NCBI GenBank assembly: GCA_038244815.1
Contig: JBBRTB010000001.1
Coordinates: 40,099-104,098, forward strand
Reading direction: 5' to 3'
DNA: 64,000 nt
Source of the DNA: Thermoanaerobaculia bacterium
GTDB taxonomy: Bacteria; Acidobacteriota; Thermoanaerobaculia; Gp7-AA8
Shown one piece after another: positions 5,536 to 13,635 of this stretch. Below the pieces are notes generated by a model. The model did no database searches. It saw only the letters and a program-made list of their open reading frames with translations, and was not told where the DNA came from. How positions within the stretch are numbered: position 1 is the stretch's first letter; the number at the start of each line of letters is the position of its first letter. A program made the translations under genes and the position numbers.

Positions 5536-8128
5536 TCAGCACGATGTCGTTCACGTGCTCGCCGTGCGACATGGCCATCGTGTGGCCGTCGCGCGAGACG
5601 TCGAACGCCAGGATCTCGCCCGAGTCGAAGCGCGTGACCTGATGCGATGTTCCCGACGGGAGATCGTAGAACCAGACGTTGGCCACCCCTCCCACGTAGT
5701 CTGTGTAGGCGAAGCTGTTCGCGCTGGTCCACTGCGCGCGCGGCGGTCCGCCCGTACGCGGAACGGGGACGAACTGCGGCCGGTCCTCGTCGCCGAGCGT
5801 GATGATGGCCGTCCGCCAGAGCTCTTCCTTGGGATCGGTCGAGCGCAGGCGGCAGATCAGGCGTTTGTGATCCGGAGAGAGGTCCGGTGAGTTCGTCGGA
5901 CCGCCCACCACGCGCTGGGCATGACCGTCGAGATCGAAGCGCCAGATGGCCTGCTCGTTTCCCTGCGTGTTGACGTAGATCGATCGGCCGTCCGGTGCCC
6001 AGGAAGGAAAGCGAATCGGGCCCTGGTGGGTGAGCTGGTGAATGTCGGCGCCGTAGATGTCGGACGTCCACACCTCATCCGAACCGGAGCGGTCGCTGAT
6101 GAAGGCGATGTGCTGGCCGTCGGCCGACACGGCGGGTTGCCACGCCGCAAAGCCGTGCGCGAGCTCCTGCGAGCCGCCGGTCGCCGCATCGATCACGTTC
6201 AGCGACGAGGTGGCACCGCAGACGGTGTAGAGAATCTTCCCCCCCTTGATCCAGCGCACGCCGCCGTTGCCGAAACAGTTCCAGAGGCCGGTGGTGAGCG
6301 GCCGCAGTCTCGCCGGTTCTCTGGCGTCGGCGACCCAGAGGTTCGCGGTGACGTCGGCGCGATGGGCCACGATGCTATGAGAGTCGGCGGTGACCGAAAG
6401 CGCGCCGTACATGCTGACGTCCGAGGTGATCTTGCGGGCCGTAGCGCCGTCGCTGGGTAGGAACCAGATCTGACCGGGCTGCAGACGGTCGGCGACGGTG
6501 ACCAGCATGCCGCTGCCGTCGGGGAGCCAGGCCAGACTTCCGATGCTGGACCAGTCAGGCGACGGAACGCGTGTGACCTGCCGCGTGGCCACATCGATGT
6601 TGAACAGCCCGGCTTTCATCGGGCTCGACCGCTCCGCGATGCTGATGAATGAGATCCTCTTTCCGTCCGGAGCCCAGGCCAGACTCCCGAAGAAGCCGGG
6701 ATAAGGCCGCGCCAGAAGCGTTCGCTCCGCCCTGCTCTCGACGTCGCCGATCATCAGCCGGTACAACCGTTCGATGGCGTTGAAACGGAGGAAGGCCACT
6801 CTCTGCGCGTCCGGCGAGATCGTGAAAACCCCTTCCATGTCTCTGGTGACGAGCCGCGACTCACCGCCGAGAATGGGGATCCGGCGCAGGTCGGTGATGT
6901 TGGGCTCCGATCGCCGCGCCACGGTGTAGAACACATAGTTGCCATCGCCGGAGACGACGATGCCGGTGTAGTACACCGGCTGGGGCGGAACGATGCGCAC
7001 GTTCGTGCCGGTGGCCACCTGCTTGACCCACATGGTCTGGTTCTCGCCGTCGACCGTGGCGTACACGATGTAATTGCCGTCGGGCGAGACGGCGCCGGCG
7101 GAGATGTTGCCGCTGTTGGTCATGCGCAGCATCACCAGCGGCGGGATGCTTTGTTGCGCCGCCAGCGAAGAGGATCCGTGCCATCCGCGTGTGAATCCGA
7201 TCCCGGCGAGAGCGACGACGGCAATGGCGGCAGCGGCGCCGGTGATGGGGAGGCGGCGCCGGGTGCGCCGGATCTCCTGCGCCTGGCGCGCGTATTCGCG
7301 AAGGTCGATGGCCACGTCCCTGATCGACTGATAGCGCTCCTCGCGGTCCTTCACCAGACACTTGCGCAGGATGCGGGCGAGATCGGGCGGCACCTCCTGC
7401 AATGCGGGCTGATCGTGCAGCACCGCGTGCATCGACTCCACTGCCGTCGAACGCGCGAACGGCGAACGGCCGGTCAGCGCTTCGTACAGGACCGCACCGA
7501 ACGCGAAGATGTCGGCGCGGTGGTCGACAGCCACCCCCCCCACCTGCTCCGGCGACATGTACGCGCCCGTTCCCATGGCCTGAGAGGGAGCGGTGTCCGA
7601 ACGGTCCGCGCCGTCTCTCGCCTCCACGAGCTTGGCGATGCCGAAGTCGAGGATCTTCGGCTGCCCGTGGCGCCCCACCATGATGTTCTCGGGCTTGAGG
7701 TCGCGGTGCACGATGCCACTGGCGTGAGCGCGCGCCAGACCGTCGGCGACCTTGGCCATCACCTCCACGATCCTGCGCTGGTCGCGCGTCGAGCGCGTCC
7801 ACACCGACAGGGTCTGGCCCTCGACCAGCTCCATGGCCAGGTAGTGCACCGTGTCCGGCTCCGTCGCGGAGCCGGAGTCATACACCGTCACGATGGCGGG
7901 ATGGCTGAGCGACGAGGCCAGCTGCGCCTCACGCAGAAACCGTTGGATGCGCGACGGGTCAGTGGCGCGATCGGGCGCCAGAATCTTCAGCGCCACCAGA
8001 CGGCCGAGTTGAGAATCGCGGGCGGAGTACACCTCGCCCATCCCTCCGCTGCCGAGGAGAGATTCGACGACGTAGCGATCGATGATCGTGCCGGAAGGGA
8101 TCGATCCCTCCGGCCTTCGACGTGACAT
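5519..8128 (-). CDS. Ser/Thr protein kinase with C-terminal TolB/PD40 beta-propeller repeats
   Basis: Hanks kinase motifs ([31 protein letters not shown]), TM segment, then repeated PD40-like blades; ATG at 8128 (MSRRRPEG). Confidence 0.85.
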
Positions 8129-8160
8129 GTCACTGGATGATACGCACGGGCCCGCTGATG

Positions 8161-8390
8161 GTTCGCAACGAGGCTGACACAACTCGCGGCTATCGCTTCA
8201 TGCCCTTGCGCGCGCGGATGGAAATGGATGGGACAGCCGACGAGGCCGAGAGCGTCGCGAAACTGATTCTCGAGATAGCGGCGATAAGAGAAGTGAATGG
8301 GCTCGTCGACGTTGGAGAACATGGCGATGGTGGTGGGCTGCGTCTTCAACTGCGTCGCGTAATAGAAACGGCGCGGCCTGCCCTTGACGC
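8161..8390. repeat. diverged copy (~95% identity) of the der 3' end plus 30 bp of its downstream flank
   Basis: 8161-8390 aligns base-for-base with 12253-12486 (authentic der C-terminus ...KTQPTTIAMFSNVDEPIHFSYRRYLENQFRDALGLVGCPIHF); no intact ORF. Confidence 0.7.
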
Positions 8391-8455
8391 TAGAGGGTGG
8401 CCAAAGGCCGGGGGAGGAGAGAGCGGCCCTTTGACGCCGCAGTGGAGAAAAACAA

Positions 8456-12049: not shown

Positions 12050-12249
12050 AATCAGATCCGCACGTGCGAACGGCGAGCGGCCCGTGAGCACCTCGAACAG
12101 AGCGGCGCCGAATGCGAAGATGTCGGCGCGGTGGTCGACAGCTACCCCTCCACCTGCTCCGGCGACATGTACGCGCCCGTTCCCATGGCCTGGGAGGGAG
12201 CGGTGTCCGAACGGTCCGCGCCCTCTCTCGCCTCCACGAGCTTGGCGAT
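12050..12249 (-). pseudogene. Ser/Thr kinase remnant (internal ~200-bp fragment, frameshifted) fused to der 3' flank
   Basis: 12107-12249 about 94% identical to kinase 7497-7640 (encodes [23 protein letters not shown]); C8 homopolymer difference causes frameshift; no ORF. Confidence 0.6.
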
Positions 12250-12282
12250 CACGTTCGCAACGAGGCTGACACAACTCGGTTG

Positions 12283-13635
12283 CTATCGCTTCATGCCCTT
12301 GCGCGCGCGGATCACGAAATGGATGGGACAGCCGACGAGGCCCAGGGCGTCGCGAAATTGATTCTCGAGATAGCGGCGATAGGAGAAGTGAATGGGCTCG
12401 TCGACGTTCGAGAACATGGCGATGGTGGTGGGCTGCGTCTTCAGCTGCGTCGCGTAATAGAAGCGGCGCGGCCTGCCCTTGACGCTGGGCGGCTGATGCG
12501 CGCGCAGGGCGCCCTCCAGGATCTCGTTGAGCTCGGAGGTGCGGAACCGCTTTCGGTAACCGGCCACGATCTCGTCGATGCGCGGAAAGATCTTCTCGAC
12601 GCGACGCCCTGTCTTCGCGGAGATGAACTCGACCGGAGCGTACGGAATGAACTTCAGCATGAAGCGGATCTGGTCCTCGAATCTCTTGGCGTCGTCCTGC
12701 GAGTGCTCGCCGGCATCCCACTTGTTCACCAGCAGCATGGCCGCCCTCCCCTCCTCCTCGGCATATCCGGCCACGGTGGCGTCCTGGGCGGTCACGCCGT
12801 CCACGGCGTCGATCATCACGAGCGCGATCTCGCAACGCTCGATGGCCTTGCGCGCCGAGATGACGGAGAGCTTCTCCGCCTCGCCGGTCGTTTTTCCCTT
12901 ACGACGAATGCCCGCCGTGTCGATGAGGAGGTAGCGCCTGCCGCCGCGCTGGATCTCCGAGTCGATGGCATCGCGCGTGGTGCCGGAGATCGGCGAGACC
13001 ACCGAGCGCTCCTCGTCGGTCAGCCGATTGAGCAGCGACGACTTGCCGACGTTGGGCCGGCCGATGATGGCCACGCGGATCGGCGCGTCCTCCCCCTCGT
13101 CTTCCCCGGCAGCCGAGTCCGCGGGGACGATGTCCGCGATCAGGTCGGTGAGATCGTCGGTGCCCGCGCCATGCTCCGCCGAGATCGGCTGCAGACGTTC
13201 CAGGCCCAGCTCGTAGAACTCGTTGACGGCCGCTTGGGCGTCCTTACGGTCGATCTTGTTGACCACCAGAATGGTCTTCGCGGCATCGCGGCGGAGCTGG
13301 TTGGCGATGTCGCGGTCCTCCGGCAACACACCCGCGGCACCGTCGACGACGAAGAGGATGAGATCGGCATCGCCAAGCGCTCGTGTGGCCTGGGCCTTGA
13401 TCTCGCCGGCGTACGCGGACATCGGCGTGTCGCCGTACTCGAGCCCTCCCGTATCGGTCAGCTCGTAGCGGCGGCCGTCGTCGAGCGACACGACGCCGGT
13501 CAAGCGGTCGCGCGTCATTCCCGGCAGGTCGTGCGTGAGCGCCCGGCGCTGACCGGCCAGACGGTTGAACAACGTCGACTTGCCGACGTTCGGCCTTCCG
13601 ATGATGACGACGCGCTTCAGATTGTGATCGGCCAT
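12283..13635 (-). CDS. der: ribosome-associated GTPase Der (EngA), two GTPase domains plus KH-like domain
   Basis: Tandem G domains (GRPNVGKS twice, DTAG/DTGG, NKxD) and conserved C-terminal KH-like domain. Confidence 0.95.
   Translation of the reverse strand: MADHNLKRVVIIGRPNVGKSTLFNRLAGQRRALTHDLPGMTRDRLTGVVSLDDGRRYELTDTGGLEYGDTPMSAYAGEIKAQATRALGDADLILFVVDGAAGVLPEDRDIANQLRRDAAKTILVVNKIDRKDAQAAVNEFYELGLERLQPISAEHGAGTDDLTDLIADIVPADSAAGEDEGEDAPIRVAIIGRPNVGKSSLLNRLTDEERSVVSPISGTTRDAIDSEIQRGGRRYLLIDTAGIRRKGKTTGEAEKLSVISARKAIERCEIALVMIDAVDGVTAQDATVAGYAEEEGRAAMLLVNKWDAGEHSQDDAKRFEDQIRFMLKFIPYAPVEFISAKTGRRVEKIFPRIDEIVAGYRKRFRTSELNEILEGALRAHQPPSVKGRPRRFYYATQLKTQPTTIAMFSNVDEPIHFSYRRYLENQFRDALGLVGCPIHFVIRARKGMKR

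Follow-up and report, generated by a model that had tools for sequence, protein, structure and literature searches.

In a 64-kb window (the whole stretch of DNA analysed here) from an uncultured Thermoanaerobaculia bacterium (Acidobacteriota), on record from one sample (SRR19962014), the gene for the GTPase Der (EngA) and the Ser/Thr kinase gene that follows it are separated by an insert of 3861 nt (8392-12252, 3.86 kb). A piece of each gene is present a second time: a copy of the der 3' end stands directly in front of the kinase, and a fragment of the kinase stands next to der at the other end of the insert. All genes of the der-kinase region lie on the minus strand of the window. The der gene is intact (12283-13635, 450 aa; Pfam MMR_HSR1 twice and KH_dom-like), and so is the kinase gene (5519-8128, 869 aa; Pfam Pkinase, E 1e-49, together with PD40/beta-propeller). 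Between them, the insert also holds the remains of a kdpD-type gene (kdpD') and a set of three genes. A first-pass annotation of the window had seen here the footprint of a segmental duplication or recombination of an ancestral der-kinase junction, and it is the origin of this arrangement that we address.

Repeats were sought by repeat finding and blastn over 5400-13700, then across the whole window. Exactly two significant direct-repeat pairs were found in 5400-13700, and no further copies of their segments were detected elsewhere in the 64 kb by blastn; a tblastx self-comparison was too noisy to bring any gain over blastn. The first pair joins segment A (12253-12486), made of the final 204 nt of intact der and the 30-nt spacer downstream of it, to segment A' (8161-8391), a copy of the der 3' end and spacer that carries a 2-nt deletion and runs on into the kinase start. 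The two are 94.4% identical over 234 columns (10 mismatches, 2 gaps, E 2e-101), in agreement with the ~95% first given for 8161-8390 against 12253-12486; A-specific variants are GCAACCGAG. The second pair joins segment C, within the intact kinase (7448-7639), to the kinase pseudogene fragment C' (12059-12249; 90.6% over 192 columns, E 3e-70), which covers residues ~182-245 of the resident kinase. Here the annotated match, ~94% between 12107-12249 and kinase-internal 7497-7640 with weaker similarity towards 12050, proved to be the core of a longer pair, whose identity is 84% over 12059-12151 and 97% over 12145-12249. The first residues encoded by C' (IAKLVEAR...) come directly behind the DFG motif, and ...SPFARA closes it. 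Its reading frame is shifted once, by 1 nt, and the shift falls where it had been placed, at a C8/G8 run that the resident kinase carries and that is 1 nt shorter in C'. The breakpoint is also shared as reported, since both kinase copies end on the plus strand with CTTGGCGAT (ATCGCCAAG on the coding strand).

The coding-strand order is therefore der ending in A, the trinucleotide GTG, C', 3.66 kb, A', segment B, segment C and the remainder of the kinase. Segment B (7640-8160, 521 nt, comprising the spacer end and the kinase 5' part) is single-copy and is missing from the left-hand copy; ATC is present at both of its edges. The kinase piece had been described as abutting the der end: it is indeed adjacent, but the joint reads spacer / GTG / kinase fragment, the three bases at 12250-12252 being unmatched in the alignment. 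No clean microhomology is seen at this position, a 3-nt filler standing there instead, and the joint at 8391/8392 shows a loose similarity only (GCCACCC vs GCCGCCC).

The comparison of synteny in relatives that the first-pass annotation had proposed was run, and der-kinase adjacency was found. The closest Der proteins (82-85% identical) are from Thermoanaerobaculia, and the kinase orthologues beside der are 59-67% identical to the resident kinase. The orthologous kinase lies 55 nt downstream of der in relative locus L002 (DATISF010000030) and 33 nt downstream in loci L099-L102; in L106 and L107, one small opposite-strand open reading frame (ORF) separates the two genes. Synteny is conserved both on the der side (GT2/methyltransferase, DUF92, der) and on the kinase side (kinase, FHA/Trans_reg_C, Prok-JAB, aconitase). 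In the window, 7302-8391 is collinear with the junction of relatives, 7302-8377 (A', B, C and beyond) running along L002 4883-5939 from the der 3' end into the kinase. This shows an ancestor with the order ...DUF92-der-kinase-FHA/Trans_reg_C-JAB-aconitase..., der and kinase being 30-55 nt apart, and the supposed ancestral der-kinase junction is thus real. Because A'-B-C is collinear with relatives and synteny is kept on both sides, A'-B-C is the junction as it was in the ancestor, and the insertion, specific to this lineage, is 8392-12252. None of the insert genes gave a tblastn match near der in 13 related loci, and in no relative was der or the kinase-1 orthologue seen in two copies at this locus.

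The same block has received other, lineage-specific insertions in relatives. In L106, the ORF at 5221-5973 between der and kinase (250 aa) has no Pfam match, and in L099-L102 a 605-aa Big_1/fn3 gene lies between DUF92 and der (L099 6757-8574). No flanking duplications were seen at these insertions (L106, L099), so nothing points to a recurrent mechanism. A second FHA-kinase-JAB module, which likewise has no flanking duplications, is present in L099-L102 (L099 14682-18646) and not in the window. The locus holding the closest Der (85%), L105 (ERZ23498858 scaffold_251), is on a contig that ends 160 nt past der. As for the kinase itself, its database version (P0001, 840 aa) lacks the first 29 codons counted from the ATG at 8128 (8041-8128) and begins within the glycine-rich loop; the orthologue lengths, 859-880 aa, favour the 869-aa reading.

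A duplicated junction of this kind could come from an assembler that set the variants of two co-occurring strains, ~5% apart, wrongly in series. Differences of ~5% that are synonymous only do resemble two strains, the organism is known from the single sample, and the left joint (A / GTG / C') is seen in the metagenome-assembled genome only. However, an independent Logan contig (k = 31) from the same sample, 3861 nt long, is 100% identical to window 12179 to 8319; a single molecule thus carries the distal 121 nt of C', the insert between and the first 73 nt of A'. This contig stops exactly where 31-mers common to both copies begin, which is the behaviour expected with both copies in the reads. 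Its length equals that of the insert (both 3861 nt) by coincidence, which 31-mer sharing at both ends explains. The proteins of the window are also matched on a 288-kb NCBI contig. In addition, A' runs unbroken into the kinase start, as in relatives, and the left joint is novel sequence (spacer-GTG-ATCGCC) with copy-specific variants within ~25 nt on either side, such as no assembler can invent. Mis-assembly of the region is unlikely, and a chimera of two strains we consider very improbable.

The DNA between the copies is dominated by three genes, all on the minus strand: a secreted Cys-rich peptide gene (10829-11176), a gene for a 641-aa protein with a signal peptide and CarboxypepD_reg repeats (8886-10811; PF13620, E 6e-32) and one for a 145-aa PDZ-domain protein, also with a signal peptide (8456-8893; PDZ_6 and PDZ_2), which overlaps the CarboxypepD_reg gene upstream by 8 nt. 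The PDZ and CarbopepD_reg assignments of the first-pass annotation are those given by Pfam. The Cys-rich peptide gene was also found at its place, but within the signal peptide an in-frame stop, TGA at 11123-11125, breaks its ORF (MKSARLFFVIVLLMVPG*LFAQ...). This TGA probably arose from TGG, and since the Logan contig is identical in sequence it is no assembly error; from its sequence, the gene may be inactive or internally initiated. Among 5.8 billion proteins, only four besides the CarboxypepD_reg protein itself are homologous to it (26-29% identity). One of these, in locus L104, sits in the same peptide-CarbReg-PDZ order (3426-6259), headed by an analogous 79-aa Cys-rich peptide gene, and the PDZ gene of that locus encodes a protein 29% identical to ours (E 3e-23). 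To judge from this gene order, the Cys-rich peptide, CarboxypepD_reg and PDZ genes form a conserved, very rare three-gene module.

The composition of the module sets it apart from its surroundings. GC content at third codon positions (GC3) is 0.67-0.70 in the three genes (0.67 in CarboxypepD_reg) vs 0.79-0.89 in flanking genes, and the GC of the insert is the third lowest among 121 same-size windows. It had been left undecided whether the intervening genes were captured or left behind. Because they are absent near the der gene of relatives, almost orphan and compositionally different (low GC3), they were captured, not left behind.

Foreign-looking DNA between direct repeats might suggest a conventional mobile element, be it an insertion sequence, a transposon or an integrative island, with the duplications as its borders. 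Yet no transposase or integrase domain was found by Pfam in any insert ORF, nor any replication or mobilisation gene in the insert, and no terminal inverted repeats are seen there. There is no tRNA at the borders (the nearest is at 16795) and no Rfam match in 5000-15000, and the repeats, stretches of host genes 190-234 nt long, do not have the form of a short target-site duplication. No 3.7-kb unit of this kind with defined ends has so far been met at another locus or in another genome. We consider such an element highly implausible. A terminator scan returned nothing meaningful at the insert borders.

The differences between the copies are the most informative about their origin. A and A', compared in the der frame, differ by seven substitutions, all of them synonymous (7/7), while in the kinase frame C and C' are set apart by 12 synonymous changes and by 5 nonsynonymous ones, which are conservative. 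Pooled by the Nei-Gojobori method (19 synonymous vs 5 nonsynonymous), this gives dS 0.23, dN 0.017 and an omega of 0.074. We compared these counts with those of a neutral-copy model in which one member of each pair has been functionless since an in-situ duplication, with a transition bias (kappa) of 1-6 and a GC-to-AT bias of 1-3. About half of the differences are then expected to be nonsynonymous (pairwise omega ~0.5), and a set of 24 with no more than 5 such differences has a probability of 2e-5 to 7e-3; for the der pair alone, that of 0/7 is 0.001-0.01. At the same time, each copy is nearest to its partner (A/A' 94% in nucleotides, C/C' 90.6% in amino acids): against anything in databases the copies reach 74-84% in nucleotides and at most 71% in amino acids, the latter being the next best protein match of C' after the resident kinase. 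Outgroups were of little help in polarising the differences, most calls being ambiguous owing to saturation at synonymous sites. In places, C' keeps ancestral residues (EQVEG, FARA; E and A) where the resident kinase is derived, and it also bears conservative derived changes of its own where the resident kinase stays ancestral. Low omega and mutually nearest copies together indicate that the fragments come from genes that were functional while diverging by ~5-10% from the resident genes. Their truncation is probably recent; each has a single frameshift.

This pattern bears directly on an extended form of the duplication first proposed, in which the junction was copied in place, by tandem duplication or by a template switch resembling microhomology-mediated break-induced replication, 3.7 kb of foreign DNA entered at the joint, the left copy lost segment B and the redundant pieces decayed. 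The copies are direct, correctly ordered and mutually closest, each redundant piece has one frameshift, and the identity switch within C', at the G8 run, resembles the end of a gene-conversion tract, all of which would fit; the kdpD' rubble nearby shows that decay is tolerated at the site. However, an omega of 0.07 and a der pair whose differences are synonymous in 7/7 cases are hard to obtain from copies that were neutral from birth (P 2e-5 to 7e-3). The history can be extended by gene conversion, or by later allelic replacement of the functional genes, as the source of the copy differences, but gene conversion removes differences and cannot make them synonymous, and at least three separate events plus imports are then required. 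A copy-paste template switch in particular is disfavoured, since the records for the assembly show the insert once only, the cluster of the CarboxypepD_reg protein having one member on one contig. We regard copying in place as unlikely, although it is the most serious competitor of the reading given below. Of the two origins first proposed, a simple segmental duplication with later decay is not supported, given the omega of 0.07 and the heterogeneous divergence of C'.

Low omega in both pairs would also follow from an older and larger duplication, if both der-kinase copies (or both kinase copies) had long been functional under purifying selection before deletions and the insert truncated them. 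Kinase modules do duplicate here, as shown by the second FHA-kinase-JAB module a few kb away in relatives. This history, however, needs a second functional der to explain the synonymous-only divergence of the der fragment, and der is normally single-copy. It also requires several independent deletions, and at the locus none of the relatives has a second der gene or a second kinase-1 orthologue. We find it improbable, to a marked degree.

The reading that we favour, tentatively and at somewhat less than an even chance, is that the locus bears a true recombination scar confined to this lineage and no functional device, and that the scar was left when DNA of a sister lineage not yet sampled integrated with homology as its anchor. 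The duplicated pieces would then be fragments of two alleles that diverged (dS ~0.2) within working genes, and not copies that decayed in place. By this, the simplest route, DNA of the closely related sister lineage, where the der-kinase region was in a different state, would have integrated by homology: in one partner lineage the kinase would already have been broken, having lost segment B and exchanged its 3' part for kdpD rubble and the operon, and the other would have had an intact der-kinase junction. Donor and recipient roles could be assigned either way round. The integration could have taken one of two routes. Homology-facilitated illegitimate recombination (HFIR) would combine an exchange by homology at one border with an illegitimate joint at the other, 8391/8392. 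Alternatively, a ~4.1-kb fragment could have circularised and then recombined by a single crossover within the der 3' end, a route that necessarily leaves the homologous segment in duplicate, one copy at each side of the insert. Each fragment would have gained its one frameshift after the integration.

Several observations weigh against this sister-lineage origin. The omega test is based on 24 differences only. The divergence of C' is heterogeneous, with 3/105 differences in its proximal part (12145-12249) vs 14/87 in its distal part (12059-12144; Fisher p = 1.3e-4), and the identity switch falls at the G8 run, the der repeat having a divergence of 5%. Such heterogeneity suggests gene conversion or a mosaic, which neither a single donor nor a one-step model predicts. 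No donor or sister lineage was found in the collections searched (5.8 billion proteins and a metagenome scan): among the 5.8 billion sequences, the best match other than self (100%) was 85% identical for Der and 67% for the kinase, and the metagenome scan with the kinase returned paralogues or distant kinases only, at most 46% identical. Exact look-ups with the der and kinase sequences of the window gave no record. Earlier events are needed in one lineage, namely the insertion into or truncation of the kinase and the 521-nt loss of segment B, and the model is not clearly more parsimonious than the in-situ ones. The illegitimate joints, finally, are without clean microhomology, the 3-nt filler at 12250-12252 being a case in point.

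A related history, which we hold to be rather improbable, is one of gene rescue: the lineage would have lost its der-linked kinase to insertion and deletions, and then regained an intact one from a sister lineage by one-sided homologous recombination. C', the kdpD rubble and the operon would be the remnants of the loss, and the der fragment at 8161-8391 the hitch-hiking end of the incoming DNA. If this were true, recombination between the two der repeats would restore the ancestral operon precisely, and recombination between the two kinase repeats would delete the kinase N-terminus.

Both routes of the sister-lineage reading have precedents. Passages of PMC3240628 document HFIR and circularisation followed by a single crossover as routes for linear incoming DNA, and HFIR is described there for Acinetobacter, Streptococcus pneumoniae, Pseudomonas stutzeri and E. 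coli (references also in PMC5361080). If HFIR took place, non-homologous foreign DNA would lie here beside a homologous anchor, with one homologous and one illegitimate border, and truncated host-gene pieces can remain next to the new DNA; the inserted DNA indeed has no homologue at the locus in relatives (13 related loci). Different are the joints, which lack a clear microhomology (3-10 nt is expected for HFIR), and the deletion of segment B with the second duplicated piece, C', which call for an earlier history of one partner. Campbell-type single-crossover integration, as outlined in part of PMC3240628, likewise leaves a direct duplication flanking the insert, here 231 and 234 nt of der 3' end and spacer, and recombination between these repeats would restore the ancestral der-kinase junction. 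However, the circle must already have carried the der-spacer / kinase-fragment joint, and no circular form or replicon function was seen.

A section of PMC5361080 proposes HFIR for orphaned gene 3' fragments in type VI secretion system (T6SS) and Rhs loci. There, as in contact-dependent growth inhibition (CDI) loci, displaced 3' ends persist downstream of acquired DNA and the conserved part serves as anchor, which is the likeness to our locus. As that section presents them, the Rhs/CDI/T6SS arrays reflect a recurrent and selected displacement of toxin-immunity genes, whereas our locus shows one event, involving the gene of a housekeeping GTPase and a kinase gene, and nothing that points to recurrence or benefit. 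Tandem segmental duplication with pseudogenised copies would equally give direct partial copies of two neighbouring genes, each frameshifted. Our copies, in contrast, are not head to tail, 3.66 kb of unrelated DNA lying between them, one of them is without 521 nt, and their differences are of the purifying-selection type (omega 0.07). Altogether, the scar belongs to a known general type, found here in a lineage that has been little sampled, and reveals no new molecular system. It offers a natural example of foreign DNA entering a conserved syntenic block in uncultured Thermoanaerobaculia, with a footprint of partial host-gene duplications whose substitution pattern betrays two alleles, and a worked example of how dN/dS on repeat pairs separates in-place duplication from import by recombination.

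The part of the insert nearest to der remains to be described. The interval 11180-12280 had been taken for non-coding debris, which does not hold: it consists largely of the kdpD pseudogene and also contains a promoter-like region. The kdpD' remnant (11548-11957, minus strand) covers residues ~33-170 of a ~380-aa KdpD-N/Usp-type protein. Profile positions 86-148 of PF02702 are matched in a single frame (E 2e-22, 80 bits vs a cut-off of 26) and positions 10-83 weakly (E 0.019) in a different frame, and tblastn with the homologue P0259 (74% identical) puts the pieces in three frames; at least three frame changes are clear, and ~5 can be made out by eye. As the PF02702 match is broken over frames and kdpD' is truncated after IRERVP, at profile position 148/210, it is a pseudogene. 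The direct repeat reported twice, at 11495 and 11548, is an exact 18-nt repeat, GGCGGCACGCGCTCGCGG, at 11496-11513 and 11549-11566, 35 nt apart. Both copies encode RERVP on the minus strand, at the end of the kdpD' homology and its truncation point; slippage or a small templated insertion may be their origin.

Between kdpD' and the peptide gene lie ~320 nt without recognisable content, at the end of which a sigma-70-like promoter is predicted from its consensus match (11200-11256, minus strand). It consists of TGGACA, a 17-nt spacer and TATATT (10/12 consensus positions), and is the sole such site in the 4.7 kb scanned; shuffled sequence gives a mean of 0.8 sigma-70-like sites, so there is no enrichment. 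A 25-nt tandem direct repeat (GTTCGAGGTGGAACTCTGTCCAGTA / GTGCGAGGCGGAACTCTGTCAAGGA on the plus strand) overlaps this -35/-10 pair and may be a putative regulator-binding site.

For annotation, the der fragment, the kinase fragment and kdpD' are to be flagged as pseudogenes. A 452-aa ORF at 11477-12835 (minus strand) crosses C' and kdpD' and overlaps der out of frame, and part of it is called as a 233-aa gene by the Logan gene caller; it is almost certainly a spurious long high-GC ORF, and should be annotated as such.

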